Of a DNA stretch of 20,000 bases, positions 1 to 19,921 are shown piece after piece (within the stretch, counting starts at the first letter, position 1; each line of letters opens with the position of its first letter). Where the stretch lies: IMG/VR virus record IMGVR_UViG_3300020045_010788, one strand, 5' to 3'. The DNA comes from an uncultured virus (IMG/VR IMGVR_UViG_3300020045_010788). Lineage: Duplodnaviria > Heunggongvirae > Uroviricota > Caudoviricetes. A program made the position numbers and the translations under genes. The notes under the pieces were generated by a model, which was given only the letters and a program-made list of their open reading frames with translations, was not told the origin of the DNA and ran no database searches.

Positions 1-235
1 AAATAGAATAATATAAATTAGTATCAGTGTCTAATGCAACTTCTACGTTTTTGAATAATTTAGTATATACATCAAGACTATTGGGCATCTTAAGCGCAAG
101 ATCAGTTATCATCTGATTATATAGGCGACCAGTATTCAATGAAATAACCTCTGGATGAAATCTGTTTTTATCTTCCATTGAATAACGTTCGGTTAATCGT
201 ATGCCAATAAGTTCTATAAGTTGTTTCTTTTTCAT
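1..235 (-). CDS. Partial CDS running off the window; probable virion ring/tail-adaptor-like protein (MKKKQLIELIGIRLTERYS...)
   Basis: Translated by hand, open from ATG at 235 to the window edge. The ATG overlaps the TGA of the upstream gene. Function inferred from context. Confidence 0.6.
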   Translation of the reverse strand, partial: MKKKQLIELIGIRLTERYSMEDKNRFHPEVISLNTGRLYNQMITDLALKMPNSLDVYTKLFKNVEVALDTDTNLYYSI

Positions 236-2757
236 CTTACCGGCAATTTAAACTGTTGAGCATATTGCAGTATTGAATTATCCTTTAAATTAAGTCCTAT
301 CGCTTCAATCATTCGACCAGCAATCCTTATCTTATCCTCATCCCTCCATTCCATTTCGACCGTTTCGCTTTCAGTTACGCTTGTTATAACGTTATCATCT
401 GAGTTATCTTGGTTAAAATCTACATAATTACCTAAAGACATATTGCCATTAACATAAGTAGAAGTTAATGTTTGCAATGTTGATACAGAACTAAAATCTA
501 AATAACTACTACTGCTTAATACCACTGGAGTTGAGAATGATCCTATAATATTTCCCGATAATCCACTATTATTAGTATAAACAACAATCCCATTCGTTAA
601 TACAATATATGCAACACGAAGATCAGGATAATTAATATTAGCATGAATATATCCGAATTGAACACATCCACATAACACATCGTTCAAAGTAGATAATATC
701 CCTATCCAACTACGATTAATAGATCTTAATAAAATAAAGTTCCCCGTTCCGCCTGTTTGCTTATAAATTCCCACCCCCGTAACACATGCATATATATTAC
801 CACTAGAATCGGCGGATAAGCCACTCCAAGCACGACTGGTTTGGCTTAAAGCCATAAAATTGCCCGTCCCGCCTGTTTGCTTATAAATATCACCACCTGA
901 AACACATGCGTAAATATCTCCATTTGGAGCAGAACATAGTCCATTCCAATATCTAGCTGTTTGGCTTAAAGCTATAAAATTACCGGTACCGCCTGTTTGC
1001 TTATAAATATCACCGTTTAAGACACATGCATAAATGTCGCCATTCGGGGCAGAACATAAGCCATTCCAAGCACGACTGGTTTGGCTTAAAGCCATAAAAT
1101 TGCCCGTCCCGCCTGTTTGCTTATAAATATCACCGTTTAAGACACATGCATAAATGTCGCCATTCGGGGCAGAACATAGTCCCCTCCAATTGCGACTCGT
1201 TTGAGACAATGGAGCGAAACTACCAATACCACCAGCCTGCCTATAAATATCTCCTCCAAATACACAGCTATAAATATCTGAATTAATTGGAGATTGACAT
1301 AATCCACACCAAGAAAGACCGTTTTCGTATAATGAATATTCACTATTATAATGACTGTATAAATTAATCCCTACACTATTTATATCATAATAAATATCCC
1401 CTAAATTAGAATTAGTAGAAGCTATCCCACTTAACTCAATCGCACTTATCTGATTATAAGCATCTCCTTCTTTTTTCACATTAATAAGCGCCGAAGTAGA
1501 ATACCCACTACTATTATTCTGAGGAATTGTAACCGTTGTTCCAAAAAGAAAATTACTAAATGAAAAATAACATATTAAATCGGCATCCTTATAAACCGAT
1601 ATGATTAAAGCCTTTGTTGCTAAAGAATATTCATATTCAATTGAAATATTATTAGACCCATACATTCCAGTAATAAATATGTTCGATAAATAATCATCTG
1701 AACTTGGAGAAATGCTAAGTATATTTCCCGTTAATACGGCGTTACCGGTTAATCCAATCATCGAAATAGTTGATCCGACGTACCCAGTTAATGATCCAGT
1801 AGAGACTAGGGTCGTTTTATTATAATTAGAATATAGTTTTAAAAACGACTTATTAAGAGCTATGTTATAATAAATTGAATAATACAACCGAGTATAATTA
1901 TTATTTATAAGGGTTACGCCATCTAAAAACGAAGTCCCGTCCTCAGTTATGTCTATAGTTGATATAGCTAACGTAGCCGATCCGCTAATCCCAGAATTCG
2001 CATATTCATTTATGGTTACACTCCCGCCAACAACCGTAGTTGTAGCATACGCCACCTTATTAATAAATCCGGTATCCTTATAAATATTAAATTCATATAA
2101 TAGCGTACTAATATTTAATGTTATCTTCCAATATAAGCTAAAGTAATCAGAATTGTCTTCTGTAATACCGGTTAAAACAAGATTGGATATTTGAGAGTAA
2201 ATATCACCTTTAATTATTATCGCAGAGGTGGCTCCAGCTTCTTTATAAATTTGGTTTAAATTTTCATCAATGTAATAATCAATGAATGGTTTGGTGGGGT
2301 AACGCAAATAGTTAAATTTAACGTATGTTGATCTTAATGGTTCAAATTGGATTTTACCTCCTCTTATCAAACAAATAGGATATTGGCTTGTAGGCATAAC
2401 AATAGAACTGCCAATTCTATCAGCATATTCCCCATCCGTAACTCTTGAAACTGGCCTATGATAAGTATTTGACCCAATGGTTTGAGGATATATGCAATTA
2501 CTCCAATAATAATAATTCGCAGGTAGATCGGATATTCCATTTGAATTTATAGCCATGTCAGGAGACAATGCAACTTTCATTCTCTCTATGACGTTTGTTA
2601 CTATTTGAGTACGCTCATACTGAGACCTCTCATCATCATAGAATTGTTGTTGGACTATTGGGGCGAGTTTATTAAAATCAGCAGCCGTAAAGCTATCTCC
2701 ATACTGCTCTTTATTGCATACAAACCAGATAAATTCTAGTAAATCCCAATTTGTCAT
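232..2757 (-). CDS. Virion ring/head-tail adaptor-like protein with a large internal insertion (beta-rich repeats plus 40-aa propeller repeats)
   Basis: N-terminal NKEQYG..FN..QQQF, LPANY, YLRYPTKP and C-terminal EW...IGLNLKD..I.QYAQ resemble Bacteroidota phage ring proteins. Likely start is ATG 2757, downstream of the promoter box at 2793-2800. Confidence 0.65.
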   Translation of the reverse strand: MTNWDLLEFIWFVCNKEQYGDSFTAADFNKLAPIVQQQFYDDERSQYERTQIVTNVIERMKVALSPDMAINSNGISDLPANYYYWSNCIYPQTIGSNTYHRPVSRVTDGEYADRIGSSIVMPTSQYPICLIRGGKIQFEPLRSTYVKFNYLRYPTKPFIDYYIDENLNQIYKEAGATSAIIIKGDIYSQISNLVLTGITEDNSDYFSLYWKITLNISTLLYEFNIYKDTGFINKVAYATTTVVGGSVTINEYANSGISGSATLAISTIDITEDGTSFLDGVTLINNNYTRLYYSIYYNIALNKSFLKLYSNYNKTTLVSTGSLTGYVGSTISMIGLTGNAVLTGNILSISPSSDDYLSNIFITGMYGSNNISIEYEYSLATKALIISVYKDADLICYFSFSNFLFGTTVTIPQNNSSGYSTSALINVKKEGDAYNQISAIELSGIASTNSNLGDIYYDINSVGINLYSHYNSEYSLYENGLSWCGLCQSPINSDIYSCVFGGDIYRQAGGIGSFAPLSQTSRNWRGLCSAPNGDIYACVLNGDIYKQTGGTGNFMALSQTSRAWNGLCSAPNGDIYACVLNGDIYKQTGGTGNFIALSQTARYWNGLCSAPNGDIYACVSGGDIYKQTGGTGNFMALSQTSRAWSGLSADSSGNIYACVTGVGIYKQTGGTGNFILLRSINRSWIGILSTLNDVLCGCVQFGYIHANINYPDLRVAYIVLTNGIVVYTNNSGLSGNIIGSFSTPVVLSSSSYLDFSSVSTLQTLTSTYVNGNMSLGNYVDFNQDNSDDNVITSVTESETVEMEWRDEDKIRIAGRMIEAIGLNLKDNSILQYAQQFKLPVR
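640..1311 (-). repeat. In-frame 120-bp (40-aa) tandem repeat, five full units and one partial (WxGLCSAPNGDIYACVxxGDIYKQTGGTGNFxALSQTxR)
   Basis: ACACA motif recurs at 782, 902, 1022, 1142, 1262; Trp codons at 706, 826, 946, 1066, 1186, 1309. Confidence 0.95.
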
Positions 2758-2792
2758 ATTTGCGAGTGTGAGTGGGCGTTGAAAATTCACAC

Positions 2793-2800
2793 CAAATATA
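2793..2800 (-). promoter_or_regulatory. Bacteroidota-type -7 promoter box TATATTTG
   Basis: Matches TAnnTTTG, ~36 nt upstream of ATG 2757. Confidence 0.6.
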
Positions 2801-2855
2801 AACAAATTATTTTATATATAATTTATTTGTTATCTCAAGAATCTATCCCTTAGAA

Positions 2856-7202: not shown

Positions 7203-7475
7203 ATGGATAATCATAACATTGTCAACGAAGAAAAAGGAAATGACGTTAACCACGTGTTAGCACCTGTTAATGTTATGCAGTTAATCTACGACTTTAATAT
7301 GGCAATAATCTTTTCAGATTTGATACCAGAAAAAACGTGTGGATATTTTGCAGACATTATGAATAAAGTGCTTACTAAACATAACTTATTAGCCGAGTAT
7401 CAAAATTACGTTAAAAGATTCGCAGAGTTGCCGCCGTCTTTCGAATGGCAGCTAACGTTGGGGTATGAAATGTAG
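7203..7475 (+). CDS. Cassette 1 hypothetical protein
   Basis: ORF spans the half-site CACGTGTTAGC (GTT 7256) and ends inside site 1. Confidence 0.6.
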   Translation: MDNHNIVNEEKGNDVNHVLAPVNVMQLIYDFNMAIIFSDLIPEKTCGYFADIMNKVLTKHNLLAEYQNYVKRFAELPPSFEWQLTLGYEM

Positions 7476-7573
7476 CGGTTTACGGGCTGCTTTCTTATCC
7501 ACCGAACAGAAACTAAAAGCGAGGCAGTATGATTGCACAACCACTGCACCCGCTATATTTTATACCCGTTGTT
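7454..7573. repeat. attC-like hairpin site 1
   Basis: AACG..GGGTATGAAATGTAGCGG / CCGCTATATTTTATACCC..TGTT. Confidence 0.85.
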
Positions 7574-7614
7574 GTGCGTATGTACTTTATTATTAACAAT
7601 TAAAATATATCAAA

Positions 7615-7914
7615 ATGATTACACAAGGAAATTGGATTGCTCGAATTGATGAAATGGGAATAGATATTATTGAAGAAAAAACGGGATTCGGCGTAGTATG
7701 GCTTGGCAACGAAGAAGAATTAAAAGCGTGTGAGTATCCATTAGAAACAGCAAAAGCTAATGCTCAATTAATATCTGCCGCCCCTGACCTACTAAATGCA
7801 ATACAGTATTATTTAGATGTTCTTGAAGAAGTAAGAGGGAAAGAATTTAGTAAAAACTCTGACCATGTGCTTAAAAAAATGTTATATGCAGTAGCTAAAG
7901 CACGAGGCATTTAG
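7615..7914 (+). CDS. Cassette 2 phage protein (ANAxLIxAAPxLL motif family)
   Basis: TQGNW N-terminus and ANAQLISAAPDLL; paralog of cassette 4. Confidence 0.8.
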   Translation: MITQGNWIARIDEMGIDIIEEKTGFGVVWLGNEEELKACEYPLETAKANAQLISAAPDLLNAIQYYLDVLEEVRGKEFSKNSDHVLKKMLYAVAKARGI

Positions 7915-7924
7915 TATTACGTAC

Positions 7925-8048
7925 AACGGTGGACGTATGGTGGCGTACCGGATTAAATAACGAAAAACTTATCAATTTATGACAAAGCAAATAGATACCT
8001 CCGAACTTTCGCATACCACTGAAACCGGTATGCACTATACGGCGTGTT
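7925..8048. repeat. attC-like hairpin site 2
   Basis: AACG..CGTATGGTGGCGTACCGG / CCGGTATGCACTATACG..TGTT. Confidence 0.85.
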
Positions 8049-8626
8049 ATAACCAGCCTTTTATTCTTGTTGGGTTTGAAGAAAGCCAGGCAATTACAAT
8101 AGAATTAAGGAAACGTGGATATAATGCTTTTTCATGTGACTTACAAGATTGTTCAGGCGGGCATCCAGAATGGCATTTAAAAATGGATATATTCTTAGCT
8201 ATTAATATGCGAAAATGGGGCATGATAATATTGCACCCGCCTTGCACTTTTACTGCACTTTGTGGGAACCGATGGTACTGGAATAGCTTTGAAAGAGTTG
8301 ACGGCGTTGAATTATGCCAAAAAGCTTGGAATGAAGCTTGCAAAGTATGTGACCATGTGGCTTTAGAACAGCCAAAAACTATAATGCAAAGATATATAGG
8401 CAAAAGAAGCCAAACTATACACCCATGGCAATTTGGACACGGTGAAACAAAAGAAACTTGGCTTTGGCTTAAAAACTTACCTGAATTAAAACCTACCAAC
8501 ATTGTTGAAGGTAGAGAAAATTTAATTTGGAAAATGCCACCATCAAAAAACCGTCAAAAATTACGTTCAAAAACTTACCCTGGAATCGCTGCCGCAATCG
8601 CTGAACAATGGACGGCTGTCTTTTAA
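7979..8626 (+). CDS. Cassette 3 phage DNA cytosine methyltransferase-like protein
   Basis: ILVGFEESQ, AFSCDL, HPPCT, LEQP, PWQFGH...K.T.LWLKNLP, RSKTYPGIA.AIA.QW; start codon lies inside site 2. Confidence 0.8.
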   Translation: MTKQIDTSELSHTTETGMHYTACYNQPFILVGFEESQAITIELRKRGYNAFSCDLQDCSGGHPEWHLKMDIFLAINMRKWGMIILHPPCTFTALCGNRWYWNSFERVDGVELCQKAWNEACKVCDHVALEQPKTIMQRYIGKRSQTIHPWQFGHGETKETWLWLKNLPELKPTNIVEGRENLIWKMPPSKNRQKLRSKTYPGIAAAIAEQWTAVF

Positions 8627-8636
8627 GGTTGGTTAT

Positions 8637-8765
8637 AACGATTCCGCAGCTATGAGCGGTTGCGGACTTCGGAGCTGCGTTTTTATCGCACGACAAAAAC
8701 CAGCGTAATGCGAGACGAAATGTTGAATGCCAGTACTACACCCGCAATCGCTTATAGGTGCTGTT
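8637..8765. repeat. attC-like hairpin site 3
   Basis: AACG..CTATGAGCGGTTGCGG / CCGCAATCGCTTATAG..TGTT. Confidence 0.85.
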
Positions 8766-8804
8766 ATAAACAGGATTTATTTATTCACAATTAATTATAA
8801 AACA

Positions 8805-9092
8805 ATGTCAAACGAAGCGCATACACAAGGTAATTGGAAATATAGACCCGATGTAGTAGGTAATAGTTTCTATATAGAAACTGTTGACCAATCTCACGAT
8901 AGGACATTTATTGGCGAAATAGGCGGAGGACTTCAATCAAAATCAGAAATTGAAGCAAATGCAAAACTTGTATCTACTGCTCCTGAACTTTTAGAAGCGT
9001 GTCAAAGAGCATTAGAAGTTTTGGAATCTGAACAAATATTTGGACAAGCAAGATTATTATTAGCAGTTGCCATTAAGAAGGCTGTTTCTTAG
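8805..9092 (+). CDS. Cassette 4 phage protein (ANAxLVxxAPELL motif family)
   Basis: HTQGNW...EANAKLVSTAPELLEA; likely ATG 8805 after an A/T-rich leader. Confidence 0.8.
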   Translation: MSNEAHTQGNWKYRPDVVGNSFYIETVDQSHDRTFIGEIGGGLQSKSEIEANAKLVSTAPELLEACQRALEVLESEQIFGQARLLLAVAIKKAVS

Positions 9093-9101
9093 CTTGTTTA
9101 T

Positions 9102-9222
9102 AACGTTGAGCATAAGATTAGTGCGGGATTTCAAAGCTGCGAACCTATCCCACGCTAAAAACTTGATAAAAGGAAGCAGTAACAATATGGCGCTTAACCC
9201 CGCATTAATTTTATGCTGTGTT
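9102..9222. repeat. attC-like hairpin site 4
   Basis: AACG..GCATAAGATTAGTGCGGG / CCCGCATTAATTTTATGC..TGTT. Confidence 0.85.
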
Positions 9223-9245
9223 ATAGCCAGTTAATTATTAATCAA

Positions 9246-9422
9246 ATGGACGAAATAATAAATGATGGTGAAAAGTATTATTTAAGAGCAAGAATGGATA
9301 ATACATTAGTTTATGAGAGTGCTTCGGGTGGAGATGCAATTGTAATTGTTAATGCCGAAATAATATGTACAATAAGGGCTATTTCAACCGGAAATGTCGG
9401 AATGGTTGACGTTATGGTTTAA
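9246..9422 (+). CDS. Cassette 5 small hypothetical protein
   Basis: Fills the cassette; ATG 9246 (alternative 9213 inside the site). Confidence 0.65.
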   Translation: MDEIINDGEKYYLRARMDNTLVYESASGGDAIVIVNAEIICTIRAISTGNVGMVDVMV

Positions 9423-9430
9423 TTGGCTAT

Positions 9431-9552
9431 AACGTTGAGCGTATGTGCTGTGTGGGAATACGAATAACGTATTTATCCACATACACCAACGCTAAATACG
9501 AGAAATGAACTTTAATAACTTACTGAAACCCACATAGCATATACGCTGTGTT
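9431..9552. repeat. attC-like hairpin site 5
   Basis: AACG..AGCGTATGTGCTGTGTGGG / CCCACATAGCATATACGCT..TGTT. Confidence 0.85.
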
Positions 9553-9567
9553 ATATACAGGCTTTTT

Positions 9568-10203
9568 ATGAAGATTTTAAATTTATACGCAGGAATTGGA
9601 GGCAATAGGCTACTTTGGGGCGATGACCACGAAATAACAGCTATTGAGTATAATTCAGAAATAGCAAAAGAATATCAAAGGTTATTTCCAAATGATACAG
9701 TAATTGTAACCGATGCCCATAAATATTTAATTGACCATGTTTTAGACGGATGGGATTTTATTTGGGCTTCGCCTCCATGCCCAAGCCATAGCCGAATAAA
9801 TACCGATGGAAACCATGCACCACGTTACCCGGAGATGACATTATACCAAGAAATAATAATGCTAAGTAATAACTGGTATAAAGGCAAATGGGTAATTGAA
9901 AATGTAATACCTTATTACGAACCAATCATAAGACCTAATGTAGAAATAGATAGACATTATTTCTGGTGTAATTTTAGGGTAAATAAAATTGAAGTTAAAG
10001 CCGAAAAAAGCATTAAAGACCAAAGCGGTACAAATGGAAGATTTGGTTTTAACCTTAAAGGAATTGACATTAAAGCCAATAAAAGACAAGTATTAAGAAA
10101 CTTGGTTAACCCTGAAATTGGCTTACACTTTTTAAATCGAGCTTTTGAAATTGCAGAAAGTAACAAATCAAAGCAGAAAACTTTATTCGATGCAGTTTTT
10201 TAA
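9568..10203 (+). CDS. Cassette 6 C5 DNA cytosine methyltransferase
   Basis: Motif I LNLYAGIGG, motif IV WASPPC, motif VI IENV, C-terminal LRNLVNPEIG. Confidence 0.88.
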   Translation: MKILNLYAGIGGNRLLWGDDHEITAIEYNSEIAKEYQRLFPNDTVIVTDAHKYLIDHVLDGWDFIWASPPCPSHSRINTDGNHAPRYPEMTLYQEIIMLSNNWYKGKWVIENVIPYYEPIIRPNVEIDRHYFWCNFRVNKIEVKAEKSIKDQSGTNGRFGFNLKGIDIKANKRQVLRNLVNPEIGLHFLNRAFEIAESNKSKQKTLFDAVF

Positions 10204-10213
10204 GCTTGTATAT

Positions 10214-10335
10214 AACGGTTTCCGCTATGAGTAGTGGCGGTTTTGGAACTACTCACTATCAAAATACAACAAATGAATATAGAAAGCACAACACAACAAT
10301 TACCACTTAACCCGCCATTACTTATAGCGAGTGTT
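10214..10335. repeat. attC-like hairpin site 6
   Basis: AACG..CGCTATGAGTAGTGGCGG / CCGCCATTACTTATAGCG..TGTT. Confidence 0.85.
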
Positions 10336-10665
10336 AGTGGCTGTACTTCTTGGGATGAATGGTTAGAAAAAACCGAAGCATCATTAAAAGATATTGGATA
10401 CAGAAAATACAAGCAGAATTTAAAGCACGAAGATTTTGCTTACTGGAAAGAGTTTGAAGGTTATCAGGTTGGTTTATTTTTCTATGATTTTAGAAAACAT
10501 CAAAATCAATTTAACTTACCCGAAAGAATTGGTGTTCAATTTGAATGTATGTTTACTGATATTGACGAAAGAATTGATTTGTCAGTTAGTAAGGATATTT
10601 CGTTAGAACAATTTGAAAATATGGCTAAAACTTTCATTGATGCTATGTTTCAGTATTGCCACTAA
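10273..10665 (+). CDS. Cassette 7 hypothetical protein
   Basis: Starts inside site 6; its stop TAA is part of the TAAC of site 7. Confidence 0.75.
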   Translation: MNIESTTQQLPLNPPLLIASVSGCTSWDEWLEKTEASLKDIGYRKYKQNLKHEDFAYWKEFEGYQVGLFFYDFRKHQNQFNLPERIGVQFECMFTDIDERIDLSVSKDISLEQFENMAKTFIDAMFQYCH

Positions 10666-10786
10666 CGGTGGCGGTATGAAAGCGTGCCGATTTGCGAGCT
10701 GTAAACTATCAAATTTTGACAAATTATGAACGGAGCTACACACTTTAATAAACCACTACACTCGGCATGTTTTATGACCGCGTGTT
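10664..10786. repeat. attC-like hairpin site 7
   Basis: AACG..GCGGTATGAAAGCGTGCCGA / TCGGCATGTTTTATGACCGC..TGTT. Confidence 0.85.
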
Positions 10787-10840
10787 AGCGGTATGGCATT
10801 TGTTTAATTCATTATAAATTAACATTTTAAATTTAAAAAC

Positions 10841-11302
10841 ATGAACATTTTAAAACAAATTAAATCAATTTGCGATGGTATTGAGTATTCAAGAGATATA
10901 CCTGAAGAAGCTAAAAAACTTGCTAAAGAAAATGGCATAGTTGTAATTGTTGGCGGTAGCGATGACTTAATGTACGCATACGGAGCTGAAAGTTATTTAA
11001 CTGATTATTGCGAACACTCCGAAGGTTGGGATGGTTGTGATCTTACAAAACACGCAAGCGACAAACAATTATTGAAAGAAGCCAAACAATTAGGATTAAA
11101 GATTTTTTGGTGCGGAACAATTGAAAAAACAGGCGAGCAAATTGAAGATTACAAAACAGCCGAAAGCGGAGCATTTAGCTATAAAGTAGCTGACAATATT
11201 GAACATCTAAATTTTAAAGTAATGGAAGATGAAGATGTTTATTGCACAGGTATAATTATCAAATTGCCTGACGGATTTATCAGTTCAAAAGATGACGAGT
11301 AG
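10841..11302 (+). CDS. Cassette 8 hypothetical phage protein
   Basis: 153-aa ORF with AKENGIVVIVGGSDDLM and EDEDVYCTGII motifs. Confidence 0.8.
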   Translation: MNILKQIKSICDGIEYSRDIPEEAKKLAKENGIVVIVGGSDDLMYAYGAESYLTDYCEHSEGWDGCDLTKHASDKQLLKEAKQLGLKIFWCGTIEKTGEQIEDYKTAESGAFSYKVADNIEHLNFKVMEDEDVYCTGIIIKLPDGFISSKDDE

Positions 11303-11336
11303 TCTCAATGCGGTAGGCTGTTTTATGCTTACCGCT

Positions 11337-11424
11337 AACGGTGGTTGTATGCGTTCGGTTTTGCTTGCATACGACTATCAATTTACACGGAATTACCCAG
11401 CAAAACTGACGTATACAACGTGTT
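11337..11424. repeat. attC-like hairpin site 8 (short, 88 bp)
   Basis: AACG..GTTGTATGCGTTCGGTTTTGCT / AGCAAAACTGACGTATACAAC..TGTT. Confidence 0.85.
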
Positions 11425-11468
11425 ATCGCTTCGGTTTTTATTACTAATCTTTTAAACAATAAATAATT

Positions 11469-11954
11469 ATGGCAACCAAAATTTTAAGTTACGAAGAAAT
11501 AATTGAACAAGCCCGCTCATCTTGGGGTGGAAAAATTGGAGATGAACGAGCCGAATCAGTAAAAAAAATACTCGATACAAGGCTTGAAAATTACCATAAA
11601 ATTACCGGCATTTCCAAAGATGAAATTCTAATTGCTTTTGAAAAGGCAAGAAATGTAAATACCGTAAACTTTTACCAAGAAAGTAATTTTCCACTTTTGG
11701 AAGATGTTCAAGTATTTGAAACACTCGAAGATTACAAAAAAGCATTTCCATCCGGTAAATATATTTGCCCTTCATGTGGAAAAGAAAGCACAGACCCTTA
11801 CGAGTGTTCACAAGAAAAATGTGACTGGAAAGTTTATGGATTGTTTGGTGATTTAGGGAAAGGAATAAAAGTAATTATCAAAGATAAATTTCTTGAACAT
11901 CCTGTTCCTATGAGAATTTTTAAACCTGTCGAACTGGTTACGGTCGCTTCCTAA
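11469..11954 (+). CDS. Cassette 9 hypothetical protein with Zn-ribbon-like Cys cluster
   Basis: NFYQESNFP, CPSCG...PYEC....CDWKVYGLF. Confidence 0.8.
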   Translation: MATKILSYEEIIEQARSSWGGKIGDERAESVKKILDTRLENYHKITGISKDEILIAFEKARNVNTVNFYQESNFPLLEDVQVFETLEDYKKAFPSGKYICPSCGKESTDPYECSQEKCDWKVYGLFGDLGKGIKVIIKDKFLEHPVPMRIFKPVELVTVAS

Positions 11955-11964
11955 ACTGATCGAT

Positions 11965-12085
11965 AACGATGGCAATAAAAAACGAAAGGGATTTAAAACC
12001 GCTTCTTTATCCACCGTTACAGACCTTGCAAACAGCTACATCGCTTGAATTACAGATAATACCCTTTTGTTTTTTATTGCGTGTT
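11965..12085. repeat. attC-like hairpin site 9
   Basis: AACG..GCAATAAAAAACGAAAGGG / CCCTTTTGTTTTTTATTGC..TGTT. Confidence 0.85.
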
Positions 12086-12123
12086 AGCAAACGTATTTTA
12101 TTAATAACTAAATAATTATCAAA

Positions 12124-12351
12124 ATGGAAGAAAAATTTAACGAGATACTTCAAAAGCATGAAATTAGGTTAATTGACTTTGAAAGAGAAAAAAACGAAAT
12201 GGCTCAAAAATGCCTATTTTTAAAAGAACACGGATTTAACAAAGAACTTGAATGGCTAAACCACGAAAGACAATCAAAAATAGATTTATTTTTAAACTAT
12301 CGTGATGCAATAAAAGAATTAAGAGAGCTTCTAAATGCGTGGAACTCTTAA
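12124..12351 (+). CDS. Cassette 10 small helical hypothetical protein
   Basis: ORF fills the cassette. Confidence 0.75.
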   Translation: MEEKFNEILQKHEIRLIDFEREKNEMAQKCLFLKEHGFNKELEWLNHERQSKIDLFLNYRDAIKELRELLNAWNS

Positions 12352-12361
12352 TATGTTTGCT

Positions 12362-12482
12362 AACGTTTTGCATAAGACCAGTAGCGGAATAGGAAGCAGT
12401 ACACTATCAACCGTTACACACTCAATAAAATGTACTGCACTAACATACACCACTGAAACCGCTATTGGTTTTATGCGGTGTT
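12362..12482. repeat. attC-like hairpin site 10
   Basis: AACG..GCATAAGACCAGTAGCGG / CCGCTATTGGTTTTATGC..TGTT. Confidence 0.85.
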
Positions 12483-12497
12483 AGCAAATCGTTTATT

Positions 12498-12779
12498 ATG
12501 ACAACAATTGATGAAGAGCAATTAAAATTAGAAATTGCACACATATTTGAAAGTGGAGCAAACGAAATCAGAATTTTAGAAATGGTTAAGAGCTTTGTTA
12601 ATAGCCGAAATATTATTAATCAAAACAAGCCTCAATTACCATTAGAACGCATAAAAACTATGGCACTTGATTGGGCTAAAGATAGAAGTGTTGGCAATGC
12701 TGAACAGGATGATGAATGCAGATACGACTACGAATGTGGTATGCTATCTGCTCGGAGCATTCTTTTAAATGTTTGCTAA
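12498..12779 (+). CDS. Cassette 11 hypothetical protein
   Basis: ATG 12498; its stop TAA is part of the TAAC of site 11. Confidence 0.75.
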   Translation: MTTIDEEQLKLEIAHIFESGANEIRILEMVKSFVNSRNIINQNKPQLPLERIKTMALDWAKDRSVGNAEQDDECRYDYECGMLSARSILLNVC

Positions 12780-12899
12780 CGTTAAATGTTTGTGCAGTTG
12801 GGGATAAAAACCACTGCACTATCAAAAATAGTAGAAACATAATAAATAGATACACAGATGAACACACCACAAACACCCCAATTGCATAAACATAGTGTT
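12778..12899. repeat. attC-like hairpin site 11
   Basis: AACG..ATGTTTGTGCAGTTGGGG / CCCCAATTGCATAAACAT..TGTT. Confidence 0.85.
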
Positions 12900-13181
12900 A
12901 GCCGTTCGGCATTTTTAAAGTTAAAATTTCCATCACTGCCTTATTGTGAGTTTGGTTTAAAATCAGGTAGTTCAACTAAATGGAACGAATCTTGGCACTA
13001 TAAAAATGCAAGTTCAGGCGTTCAGGTAAATGCATTATGGTATGATGATGAAACGGTATCAATAGGTGTTTATGACCCTCGAATTAAAAACAAATTTGAA
13101 GTTAATAAAACCGTTTTTGACAAATCAGGAAACTTCAATCAAGAAATTTTAGAAATGTATTGCCGTCGTTTTTTATGCTGA
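12858..13181 (+). CDS. Cassette 12 hypothetical protein
   Basis: Starts in the loop of site 11; no usable Met after the GTT. Confidence 0.75.
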   Translation: MNTPQTPQLHKHSVSRSAFLKLKFPSLPYCEFGLKSGSSTKWNESWHYKNASSGVQVNALWYDDETVSIGVYDPRIKNKFEVNKTVFDKSGNFNQEILEMYCRRFLC

Positions 13182-13210
13182 CGGCTAACTCGTTTATATA
13201 CGCAATAGCC
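13175..13210. other. Terminal half-site (attI candidate): ATGCTGACGGCTAAC-TCGTTTATATACGC
   Basis: Has the cassette-12 complementary flank and AAC, but reads AACT rather than AACG and has no matching right arm. Confidence 0.5.
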
Positions 13211-18511: not shown

Positions 18512-18658
18512 TACTATTCCCAATGCAGGAAAGAGCAAAGGCTTTGTTTTATACTATATTTATAAATAGATGGTTTTAAAACTTAATTGGAAATGAAAAA
18601 TCGATAGGGGAAGGCGAAAACCTTTAAAAGAGTAGCCAATATATAAATACATACAGAT

Positions 18659-19008: not shown

Positions 19009-19130
19009 AACGGTCGCAGGTTTGACCAGTAAGGGATTACGGGCTTCGCTCCTGTCGAAATATCCCAAAGCTGATGCGAGATATAACGTTGCAATTAATC
19101 ACGAAACCTTTATTGGTTATAGCTTGTGTT
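19009..19130. repeat. attC-like hairpin site 12, separate from the main array
   Basis: AACG..CAGGTTTGACCAGTAAGGG / CCTTTATTGGTTATAGCTTG-TGTT; 122 bp; ATA-N6-GTT. Confidence 0.75.
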
Positions 19131-19271: not shown

Positions 19272-19576
19272 ATGAAGATTTACATTTCAGGAAAAATTTC
19301 GGGACTGCCGATTAAAAACGTAATTGAAAAGTTCAAATGGCACGCTGCATTTTTAGAAATGAAAGGTCATACACCTATTAATCCAATAGAAGTAAGCCCC
19401 TTCAATGATAAAAAAACTGACGTGATTATATGGTTGATGATATTTCGGCCTTATTGGAGTGTGAAGCGATATATATGGTGAAGGACTGGGGTCAATCTAA
19501 GGGGGCTAGGCTTGAATACGCTATTGCCAAAGAATTAGGACTATATATTCTTTTTGATGGAGAATTTAATAATTAG
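19272..19576 (+). pseudogene. Frameshifted DUF4406-family (nucleoside deoxyribosyltransferase-like) gene
   Basis: MKIYISGKISGL...NP continues in another frame as RDYMVDDISALLECEAIYMVKDWGQSKGARLEYAIAKELGL; the break is near the A7 run at ~19410, with a TGA where Trp is expected. Confidence 0.8.
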
Positions 19577-19579
19577 ACT

Positions 19580-19921
19580 ATGAGACAAATATTATTTAAA
19601 GCAAAAATAACCGGAAGTGATTCGTGGATATTTGGATTACCGAATTGCATCTACTCAAATAATAGAATTGATTCAATATATTGCTAAACTAATCAAAGAG
19701 CGGAATATATTACAACTGATACAATCAGTGAATTTACAGGATATTGTGATTCAAAGAATCATAATATTTTTGAAAATGATATACTGATTGCCTCAAACGG
19801 AATTAAAAATAAAAAAGCTCCAGTTAAATTTATTAATGGAGCCTGGAGGTGCAATGGATATTTATTGCATGAATATTTAAAAAACAACGATTGCTATTTA
19901 TGTGGTAACATTTTCGATTAA
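19580..19921 (+). pseudogene. YopX-family gene with an internal TAA
   Basis: MRQILFKAK...WIFG...TISEFTGYCDSKNHNIFENDIL...GNIFD; in-frame TAA at 19685-19687. Confidence 0.8.

Follow-up and report, generated by a model that had tools for sequence, protein, structure and literature searches.

The cassette array and its hairpin sites

The window, a stretch of 20,000 nucleotides (20 kb) from an uncultured virus of the Caudoviricetes (IMG/VR record IMGVR_UViG_3300020045_010788), carries an array of 11 cassette bodies between positions 7615 and 13181, each with one open reading frame (ORF) on the + strand in the ORF list, together with 12 hairpin sites running from AAC to GTT (Table 1). PHROG/Pfam comparison identified two of the cassettes as DNA methyltransferases; further matches comprise two to phrog_1273 and one to phrog_25176, and the remaining window cassettes have no family match in these collections. 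AAC and GTT are invariant, and the inverted RYYYAAC/GTTRRRY cores close an imperfect hairpin, which agrees with the attC-like character that the preliminary description gave to the sites. An hmmsearch of all ORFs of at least 90 aa in the 20 kb found no tyrosine recombinase, and the window has the composition of a CALIN (a cluster of two or more attC sites with no integrase near them), with 12 sites and no recombinase in 20 kb, the attC sites being defined here by matches to R1, a model built from the window.

Table 1. Sites, array terminus and cassette bodies of the window; each pair is G.T unless marked.
Feature	Positions	Strand	Length (nt)	R1 (bits)	AAC-G pair	TWW-G pair	Inner pair	Remarks
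s1	7454..7573	+	120	97.7	7457/7570	7467/7561	7472/7556	
s2	7925..8048	+	124	101	7928/8045	7939/8036	7945/8031	N5 variant
s3	8637..8765	+	129	80.6	8640/8762	8654/8753	8659/8748	
s4	9102..9222	+	121	106.4	9105/9219	9116/9210	9121/9205	
s5	9431..9552	+	122	114.5	9434/9549	9445/9540	9450/9535	
s6	10214..10335	+	122	111.5	10217/10332	10229/10323	10234/10318	
s7	10664..10786	+	123	106.1	10667/10783	10678/10773	10684/10768	N5 variant
s8	11337..11424	+	88	44.7	11340/11421	11351/11412	11357/11407	short class; pairs by direct reading
s9	11965..12085	+	121	106.1	11968/12082	11979/12073 (A-T)	11984/12068	
s10	12362..12482	+	121	121.1	12365/12479	12376/12470	12381/12465	
s11	12778..12899	+	122	110.3	12781/12896	12792/12887	12797/12882	
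s13	19009..19130	+	122	96.8	19012/19127	19024/19118	19029/19113	isolated, 6 kb past array
Array terminus	13177..13203	+						flank complementary to s11 right flank, then AAC (13187-13189), then attI-like TCGTTTATATAC
Cassette body	7615-7914	+						
Cassette body	7979-8626	+						DNA methyltransferase (phrog_757)
Cassette body	8727-9092	+						
Cassette body	9213-9422	+						
Cassette body	9568-10203	+						DNA methyltransferase (PF00145)
Cassette body	10234-10665	+						
Cassette body	10841-11302	+						
Cassette body	11469-11954	+						
Cassette body	12124-12351	+						
Cassette body	12465-12779	+						
Cassette body	12858-13181	+						

Neither a hairpin nor a recombinase gene follows the array terminus. 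Its ending, AAC followed by N3-4 and (T/G)TATATA, occurs in other arrays too and ahead of the recombinase gene in related phages; the window copy (13187-13203) is an attI look-alike only, failing the strict motif AAC N2-8 ATAT(G/A)TA. Searches with R1 gave 286 matches in 75 sources and, at E<=0.01, 19 matches in three cultured Flavobacteriia phages.

Conservation of the G.T pairs

The G that follows AAC faces the T that precedes GTT in 12/12 window sites (11/11 in the RNAalifold table, with s8 read directly), as had been claimed. Two further wobbles had been placed at TWW-G-N4-G, and the words quoted for them are present in the sequence, as is the N5 spacing with an extra base in s2, s7 and s8, but the TWW-G wobble is absent in s9: the first G faces T in 10/11 aligned sites (11/12 with s8), and the second, inner G does so in 11/11 (12/12 with s8). 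No further conserved pair was identified that would correspond to the G described at position 11-12 of the outer stem facing a T. Other G.T pairs are sporadic, with 70 G.T/T.G against 35 A.C/C.A and 103 other mismatches among 2869+208 non-fixed cells.

In larger alignments, two of the three proposed wobbles, AAC-G and the inner G, are near-invariant and the third, TWW-G, is not conserved. The AAC-G and inner pairs are G.T in 125/130 and 129/130 sites near phage recombinases, in 58/58 sites each in bacterial arrays, in 145/148 and 146/148 of the best R1 matches, and in 73/76 and 74/76 sites outside the discovery pattern; because alignments A2, A4 and A5 were fitted to R1, such pair counts are biased toward the structure of the model. 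The TWW-G position is G.T in 28/130 sites near phage recombinases and Watson-Crick in 98, and it is Watson-Crick in 34/75 sites outside the discovery pattern. Watson-Crick swaps at the two invariant wobbles are almost absent, though either single transition would give one, and the flanking pairs vary on both sides (916, 921 and 372 cells in the alignments of best R1 matches, near-recombinase sites and bacterial sites, respectively). Compensatory changes were found by RNAalifold in 15/24 pairs of the 11 window sites; among the 150 best matches, 96% of cells are paired over 24 pairs, and 0/500 column shuffles equalled the observed pairing. The letters around the wobbles are conserved as well, namely the adjoining T-A and A-T pairs, a loop T, and the inner motifs YTATC and CCACT.

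Folding of the two strands

The statement that only the + strand folds was too strong: folding predictions give the - strand this hairpin too, interrupted by 1x1 A.C mismatches. When both strands of the window sites were folded as DNA, the mean minimum free energies were -18.1 (+) and -16.6 (-) kcal/mol, with the + strand better in 9/12; for 281 distinct sites of the family, the means were -12.4 (+) and -10.7 (-), with the + strand better in 236, the - strand in 41, and four ties. The predicted energy gap is small (0.9-1.7 kcal/mol). Canonical pairing probabilities over 193 sites are likewise higher on the + strand, at 0.48 vs 0.26 for the R box and 0.60 vs 0.39 for the long stem.

The asymmetric internal loop of the preliminary description recurs throughout the family, with 3-5 nt at the 5' side and exactly 1 nt at the 3' side in 335/336 sites. 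On the wobble strand it may stand for the unpaired central spacer between the R and L boxes of attC, and the corresponding loop on the complement is larger because G.T turns into A.C there. No conserved extrahelical base was found in the long stem, whose arms are equally long in 229/336 sites and in which no bulge recurs at a set position.

Cassette boundaries and cassette content

To compare cassette ends, the 8 nt preceding AAC were reverse-complemented and matched with the 8 nt that follow GTT in the site before. Within the window, 10/10 adjacent pairs are complementary at 5-7/8 positions; 193 pairs from 76 loci average 5.26/8, compared with 3.02 when a site is matched with its own flank and 2.9 when partners are shuffled. 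Among 61 pairs of sites from different loci that are at least 85% identical, homology runs on to the left of AAC in only one pair, which represents identical contigs; it breaks at AAC in 60/60 informative pairs and continues for at least 60 nt to the right of AAC in six further pairs (of the 61; see also loci L015 and L056). For instance, s4 and the last site of locus L024 share 94% identity, and the genes either side are unrelated. Cassette linkage judged by protein-level pairs was mixed. On sequence comparison, the phage cassette unit is one site followed by one gene, the site going with the gene downstream of it, and the junction falls at the site's left-hand AAC. The phages and the window hold orphan methyltransferases and uncharacterised small genes in such swappable units.

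Genes of phage arrays lie on the wobble strand in 183/193 bodies, whereas ORFs of bacterial arrays lie opposite to it in 27/31 and 6/8 bodies. The integron arrangement, in which a gene is followed by its attC and the coding strand is the top strand, was accordingly found in the bacterial relatives (27/31) and not in the phages.

Recombinase and attI-like motif in related loci

In 79 loci with a recombinase, all 149 R1 matches are on the recombinase strand and 148 of them upstream of the gene. An attI-like motif, AAC N2-8 ATAT(G/A)TA, stands 49-66 nt ahead of the start codon in 50/60 loci, compared with 29/1200 control windows. Related phages thus have the array, then the attI-like motif, and directly after it the Xer-like recombinase, which places the motif beside the recombinase gene at the array end, as attI adjoins an integrase gene.

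The recombinases of related arrays score 153-170 bits in two stretches against TIGR02249, whose cut-off is 265, and have about 42 residues fewer than IntI4 (PDB 2a3v) between chain positions 180 and 245 (24 vs 66). An integrase of the IntI clade with its additional domain was found neither in the window, which has no recombinase, nor in the relatives, whose enzymes fall below the IntI cut-offs. In line with the distinct recombinase specificity that had been anticipated, the associated enzyme is of a distinct Xer/IntI-like type without the IntI-specific insertion, and enzymes sharing the wobbled sites are only 34-40% identical. A PF00589 recombinase is present in 0/5 whole records, including three complete cultured phage genomes, and therefore most arrays may be inactive or rely on some other enzyme.

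Strand polarity and alternative readings

The strand that an integrase chooses at a palindromic site determines whether cassettes enter the right way round. We consider it probable that the window hairpins are attC-type sites belonging to an integron-like system that Bacteroidota chromosomes share with phages of Bacteroidota, in which the + strand is folded and cut at 5'-AA|C and is marked by the wobbles and the one-sided loop. The + strand, carrying G opposite T, would fold as single-stranded DNA, and a Xer-like tyrosine recombinase would bind it and make the cut. The helix would stay unbroken on this reactive strand through the AAC-G.T-GTT pair, the inner G.T and the 3-5 x 1 loop, in which a T is conserved; on the complement these features would become A.C mismatches and a bigger open loop, so that the two strands would show the enzyme different shapes. 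The window array lacks an integrase and would be served in trans, because the recombinase gene that sits behind the attI-like motif in related phages is absent from the window. A role of the wobbles as the discriminating signal in strand selection is inferred, though well motivated. The choice of the + strand is also indicated by independent geometry, namely the junction at its 5' AAC, followed by the attI-like motif and recombinase on that strand; this geometry makes the + strand of the window equivalent to the bottom strand of classical attC.

The opposite assignment seems unlikely. The - strand would be the substrate, and its fixed A.C mismatches and open 2 x 4-6 loop would act as the analogues of extrahelical bases and central spacer that the enzyme needs. 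Several observations fit: the long hairpin is still predicted on the - strand, with 1x1 mismatches at fixed places, its extra bases fall in the 3' arm, where the bottom strand of attCaadA7 has them too, a required mismatch on the complement could explain why G.T never turns Watson-Crick, and IntI is reported to require unpaired features (Nivina 2016; Bouvier 2009). With IntI-like chemistry, however, a cut in the 5' AAC of the - strand would shift the junction to the GTT end, so that each site went with its upstream gene, yet the break is at AAC throughout the informative pairs; moreover, the attI-like motif comes after AAC on the + strand, and the first inner mismatch is freely Watson-Crick (34/75 and 98/130).

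Equally doubtful is the suggestion that the G and T are base-specific contacts of the recombinase or an accessory protein on a hairpin, cruciform or duplex, with no part in strand discrimination. The wobbles do stand among other conserved letters, including the neighbouring T-A and A-T pairs, the loop T and the inner YTATC and CCACT motifs, but contacts alone give no account of G facing T, and never C, while the other 16-18 stem pairs covary, and this strong covariation places arm pairing under selection.

The alternative offered in the preliminary description, that the wobbles are G.U pairs of an intercistronic mRNA structure serving processing, stability or translational coupling, has little to commend it. 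The phage wobble strand is mostly the sense strand, and RNA folds favour the + strand in 210/281 sites (means -27.4 vs -24.2); however, both wobbles stay on the non-coding strand in bacterial arrays, the polarity of the sites tracks attI and recombinase and not transcription, and there is no Rfam family match. That the G.T bias reflects C-to-T mutation favouring one strand, or common ancestry of the sites, is most improbable, as the mild 2:1 excess of G.T/T.G over A.C/C.A in non-fixed stem columns is set against invariant pairs that are position-specific beside flanking pairs changing on both sides in hundreds of cells, and that persist in phage and bacterial arrays with such divergent recombinases.

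A wider reading of the favoured + strand model is plausible, although we would stop short of backing it. The system would be widespread in Bacteroidota and their phages, and the strand would be decided by a pair of invariant G.T wobbles together with the one-sided loop, in place of flipped-out bases; the compact Xer/IntI-like recombinase would never have gained, or would have lost, the base-flipping domain, and the anti-restriction cassettes of phages would be mirrored, the recombining strand being the coding strand. With neither extrahelical bases nor an IntI-specific domain, and with two pairs kept as G.T in 96-100% of sites, the family lends itself to simple mutational testing of whether strand choice can rest on the geometry of wobbles or the asymmetry of mismatches alone.

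Comparison with known systems

Strand choice in classical integrons is attributed to extrahelical bases that a domain peculiar to IntI recognises; the extra IntI domain is said to bind these bases, a finding credited to MacDonald and colleagues in 2006. The family shares with the attC sites of IntI (attCaadA7 of class 1; the Vibrio VCR with VchIntIA, PDB 2a3v) the inverted AAC/GTT cores, the imperfect hairpin separating cassettes of one gene each, complementarity between the two ends of a cassette, an attI adjoining the recombinase gene start, a bottom-strand G facing T beside the R box, and the homogeneity of sites within one genome. The coding-sense oligo of attCaadA7 reads AACA...CGTT, so its bottom strand is AACG...TGTT, and on this sequence evidence the AAC-G wobble is no departure from classical attC. 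The departures are a further G.T pair, the inner one, that is likewise invariant, a 5'-arm loop of 3-5 x 1 in place of conserved extrahelical L-box bases, a recombinase without the IntI-specific insertion, and phage genes on the bottom-strand equivalent, with each site ahead of its gene. The extra unpaired bases of the family occupy the 5' arm on the wobble strand, whereas attCaadA7 has its extrahelical bases in the 3' arm of its bottom strand, and this one feature points the opposite way.

The complementary strands of attCaadA7 are described as folding differently through a small number of positions close to the R box that are not Watson-Crick, the bottom strands being canonical more often (46% vs 36%); the effect there is variable, of modest size and confined to three bases of the spacer, whereas two G.T pairs are fixed family-wide here (Mukhortava et al. 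2019, PMC6393395). The term 'wobble' has 0 occurrences in the attC literature searched. In CTX phage, the folded single strand of attP(+) is integrated by XerCD. The window family may resemble it in that a Xer-type recombinase would act on a folded single strand of phage DNA, but attP(+) is a single dif-mimicking integration site with no cassette array, and the window holds an array.

CALIN have been described in phages (Qi et al. 2023, PMC9892861), among them Polaribacter P12002L, a phage of Flavobacteriia in which attC-like sites adjoin genes for methyltransferases, and R1 found further sites of the window's family in the same genome. The two sites tested in that study are short (~55-70 nt) and have no R1 match, in contrast to the 120-nt family here, and its available text does not describe this family, its wobbles, recombinase or reversed polarity (PMC9892861). 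Surveys, according to the available text of the IntegronFinder 2.0 preprint, found almost no integrons in Flavobacteriia and their phages, to which integron-like cassette stores are now extended.

The rAID-1 clusters of Bacteroidales have a XerD-family recombinase followed by co-directional low-GC genes and intergenic repeats 'reminiscent of integrons', and are defined by a 5' XerD-like recombinase at least 44% identical to BF9343_RS08045 with at least two co-directional genes downstream (Ross et al. 2019, 10.1101/471110). The available text of that account mentions no hairpin (0 occurrences of the word), wobble or strand polarity. Downstream genes were found in the bacterial loci and not in the phages, where the array is upstream of the recombinase (148/149 sites). 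rAID-1 cargo is described as immunity genes, whereas the window is phage DNA with methyltransferases, no recombinase and the mirror gene orientation. By description, the bacterial arrays resemble rAID-1, with a recombinase, then genes on its strand and R1 sites between them, and the cassette stores of Flavobacteriia are thereby tied to the rAID-1 clusters of gut Bacteroidales.

Fixed G.T wobbles in the hairpin sites

Within the window array, 11 structured elements (s1 to s11) alternate with 11 single ORFs, ten of the elements being 120–129 nt long and one, s8, 88 nt, and AACG opens and TGTT closes every window element. The alignment of 11 window elements gave a consensus hairpin of 24 pairs, with compensatory changes in 15. 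The pair joining AAC-G to T-GTT is G.T in 11/11 aligned sites, the first inner wobble, at TWW-G, is G.T in 10/11 (A-T in s9), and the second inner G.T, four or five bases further on, recurs in 11/11; all three are also present in the short s8. The TWW-G words quoted in the preliminary description stand in the sequence as written, while the extra conserved G facing a T that it also listed had no match in the window sites.

The neighborhood is phage-like, with primase-polymerase/helicase, replication initiator, HNH and endonuclease-VII-like, exonuclease, and virion protein genes. The isolated site s13, 6 kb past the array, may form a lone or decayed cassette together with the short ORF beside it. 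Two motifs, YTATC(M)A and (A)CCACTNAAMCC, are conserved in the loop regions and could mark an accessory protein site or a promoter; a DnaA-box reading of YTATCCAC was set aside, the full box being found in s5 only. The 3' arm is TAnnTTTG-like, which by eye might be read as a promoter. The Rfam scan of the window at E ≤ 1 returned just two weak, unrelated matches.

Coordinates of the features discussed (window positions unless stated otherwise)
Feature	Position	Strand	Remarks
857-aa ORF	232-2805	-	weak match to virion structural protein PHROG
Repeats in the 857-aa ORF	662-1278		five tandem repeats of 120 nt (40 aa)
Array of elements and ORFs	7454-12899	+	
Site s4	9102-9222	+	
First loop motif of s5	9473-9481		full DnaA-box-like TTATCCACA
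Site s10	12362-12482	+	
Junction at array end	13187		GGCTAAC/TCGTTTATATAC
DUF805b RNA motif	18604-18638	+	weak match, 22.5 bits (gathering score 35.6), E 0.02
Site s13	19009-19130	+	twelfth full element
Short ORF adjoining s13	19272-19787		N-terminal-only match to nucleoside 2-deoxyribosyltransferase PHROGs
P12002L_attC1 (in the related locus L132)	about 30005-30058	-	site of Qi et al.

A pattern scan of IMG/VR yielded at least 128 stretches. For the family, R1 was used, a covariance model derived from the window sites (its E-values are rough); a sequence-only nhmmer profile was less sensitive. R1 gave 286 matches in 75 sources and 56 in short loci, and, at E ≤ 0.01, 19 matches in Flavobacterium phage hemulen6-1, Cellulophaga phage phi17:1, and Polaribacter phage P12002L. 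By length, the sites form classes of about 122, 113, 86, and 45–67 nt, the short ones keeping the outer stem and losing the loop. In one related locus (L051), the stretch from the last R1 site to the recombinase contains two cassettes flanked by small AACG... sites, whose CTCAGATATATTTAG...CTGA hairpin R1 missed; arrays thus contain additional site types. One freshwater DNA sequencing run shared 5% of the window's words, and no RNA run was among the matches listed; contigs from sequencing runs were short relatives of 90–95% likeness, with joint sides of fewer than 40 letters, and are uninformative as to excision or expression.

The larger alignments were all fitted to R1, and A4 is free of pattern bias because its sites were found through the recombinase. 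The wobbles had been described as recurring at fixed positions; two of them, AAC-G.T-GTT and the inner G.T, are essentially invariant, whereas the TWW-G wobble is a lineage habit. A Watson–Crick pair, which would be stronger, in place of either invariant G.T is nearly never seen, though one transition suffices, and this near absence argues that selection acts on G opposite T itself, not simply on the stability of the + strand.

Wobble pairs in the larger alignments
Alignment	Sites	AAC-G.T-GTT	Inner G.T	TWW-G position
A2, best matches	148 distinct	145	146	112 G.T, 34 Watson–Crick
A2, subset outside the discovery pattern	76	73/76	74/76	40/75
A4, via recombinase	130	125	129	28 G.T, 98 Watson–Crick
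A5, bacterial	58	58	58	19

Folding of the two strands

Folded with DNA parameters, the window sites average −18.1 kcal/mol on the + strand vs −16.6 kcal/mol on the − strand, the + strand being better in 9/12. Over 281 distinct family sites, the mean minimum free energy is lower on the + strand (−12.4 vs −10.7 kcal/mol), which is the more stable one in 236 of them, yet the − strand is more stable in 41, with four ties. Among 193 sites, the predicted probability of canonical R-box pairing is 0.48 (+) and 0.26 (−), and that of arm–arm pairing is 0.60 (+) and 0.39 (−). The predicted fold of the − strand is the same long hairpin with 1 × 1 A.C mismatches at fixed places, so the proposal that only the + strand folds well is too strong in its exclusivity, although the + strand is favored; as predicted by folding, the asymmetry between strands is real and significant but moderate. 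The loop alone is constantly asymmetric: in 335/336 sites its 5' side has 3–5 nt and its 3' side exactly 1 nt, and a conserved T lies within it.

Cassette polarity and the position of the crossover

The 8 nt left of AAC, when reverse-complemented, agree with the 8 nt right of the preceding GTT at 5–7 of 8 positions in 10/10 adjacent window pairs, always better than with the right flank of the same site. In integrons, the two ends of a cassette make one R box in the circular form, and complementarity to the previous site is the mark of such cassettes. Across 76 loci, this flank rule has a mean of 5.26/8 vs 3.02 for the own flank and 2.9 for shuffled partners; all sites are on one strand in 74/76 loci, and the longest ORF, which defined the ORF orientation of each body, is on the site strand in 183/193 inter-site bodies.

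The junction was examined in 61 site pairs at least 85% identical and from different loci, among which homology left of AAC was absent except in one pair of identical contigs, and in six further pairs homology ran on for at least 60 nt past GTT on the right. The closest cassette pair has the same pattern, with the break at AAC; the nucleotide comparison of cassettes gave just one informative pair. These breaks place the crossover at AAC, and the site is linked to, and moves with, the downstream gene. Cassette pairs compared at the protein level (n = 17) were mixed in their linkage to the upstream or downstream site and were superseded by site-anchored tests, in which site pairs of at least 0.8 identity had homologous downstream ORFs in 12 cases and upstream ORFs in three, those three being homologous downstream as well. 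In 84/99 near-identical site pairs the flanking ORFs were homologous on neither side, so sites are often shared minus their cargo. Sites s4 and s10 are 93–94% identical to sites in other phage contigs (L024 and L028) with unrelated genes on both sides, and their homology ends at AAC on the left and 8–20 nt past GTT on the right, so that here site cores are shared without cargo, as in Vibrio repeats.

Recombinase and attI-like motif

Clustering of neighboring genes identified, in five contigs, a tyrosine recombinase of 266–277 aa encoded directly behind the array and on its strand, the gene being preceded, in this order, by the last cassette's flank, AAC, and TAT(T/C)ATATATAA. The search with the recombinase alignment, whose members are 34–40% identical to the first one, matched at least 268 viral contigs, and 79 further recombinase loci were kept for site tests. 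R1 matches in these loci were on the recombinase strand in 149/149 cases, 148 of them upstream; a site was present in 51/58 loci with at least 1.5 kb of upstream DNA, and an AAC N2-8 ATAT(G/A)TA motif lay 49–66 nt before the start in 50/60 loci vs 29/1200 control windows. The array end of the window has a similar junction. The window itself has no recombinase gene, and a PF00589 gene was found in 0/5 whole records, three of which are complete genomes of cultured phages, so most arrays are integrase-less clusters.

Among family models, the recombinase matched best the XerA/"integron integrase" model and TIGR02249, scoring under the cut-off of each; the TIGR02249 match is split into two stretches. 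The XerA structure aligns with it end to end and VchIntIA (2a3v) in two pieces, where 24 query residues face 66 of IntI4 (chain positions 180–245); all the recombinases share the catalytic R, K, H-x-x-R, H, and Y. In the VchIntIA–VCR structure, the extrahelical bases are held by the segment that is missing here, in keeping with which the long stem is bulge-free in 229/336 sites.

Bacterial arrays and pairing in mRNA

The bacterial relatives of the recombinase are mostly from Flavobacteriia, with some from Bacteroidales and others. Here, R1 sites lie downstream of the recombinase gene on the opposite strand, and the cassette ORFs run in the direction of the recombinase gene, opposite to the wobble strand, in 27/31 bodies, as they are opposite to it in 6/8 bodies of the few upstream arrays. 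The flank rule is found in 33/38 cases, and the sites are nearly identical within one bacterial genome, like Vibrio repeats. The wobble strand thus tracks recombination polarity, not transcription sense, which argues against G.U pairs in mRNA, the alternative offered in the preliminary description, as the general reason for the wobbles. A search for a terminal AAC or attI in the bacterial arrays gave nothing convincing. The bacterial recombinases (L253 from Flavobacterium difficile, L245, L293, and others) have N-terminal extensions of 80–300 residues that the phage enzymes lack. A ...W(S/H)...W(Y/H)(L/V)P... stretch is conserved in these extensions, and Pfam finds only SAM-like and catalytic domains in the bacterial recombinases.

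Comparison with known systems

Integrons are nearly absent from Bacteroidetes, according to the IntegronFinder 2.0 preprint. The rAID-1 clusters of Bacteroidales combine an XerD-like recombinase with co-directional genes and integron-like repeats between the genes, a layout that fits the bacterial arrays (Ross et al., 10.1101/471110). Integrase-less attC clusters have been reported in phages including P12002L, whose two sites in that study are short and distinct from the R1 matches (Qi et al., 2023, PMC9892861). One of them, P12002L_attC1, reads AACG...TGTT on the gene-sense strand and has one extra T on the 3' arm, with the same polarity to the genes as the window sites. The strands of attCaadA7 fold differently owing to three spacer bases, as shown by Mukhortava et al. 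(2019, PMC6393395). The literature searched, supplements of bioRxiv preprints aside, contained no report of fixed wobbles at such sites and no description of the phage form with reversed genes, and the term "wobble" did not occur in the set of attC papers checked for it.

Read from 5' to 3', the wobble strand carries the cassettes, AA/C, the attI-like motif, and the recombinase gene in sense. A classical integron has this order on its bottom strand, the difference being that the cassette genes are in sense here. By this geometry and by analogy with IntI chemistry, the wobble strand would be the counterpart of the bottom strand. As the plasmid record for the attCaadA7 region shows, the oligonucleotide of Qi et al. 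in coding sense is AACA...CGTT, and the bottom strand is therefore AACG...TGTT. The AAC-G.T-GTT wobble is thus shared with attCaadA7, the paradigm attC, on the strand that IntI1 recombines, whereas the extra bases lie on the 5' arm of the wobble strand, the reverse of attCaadA7.
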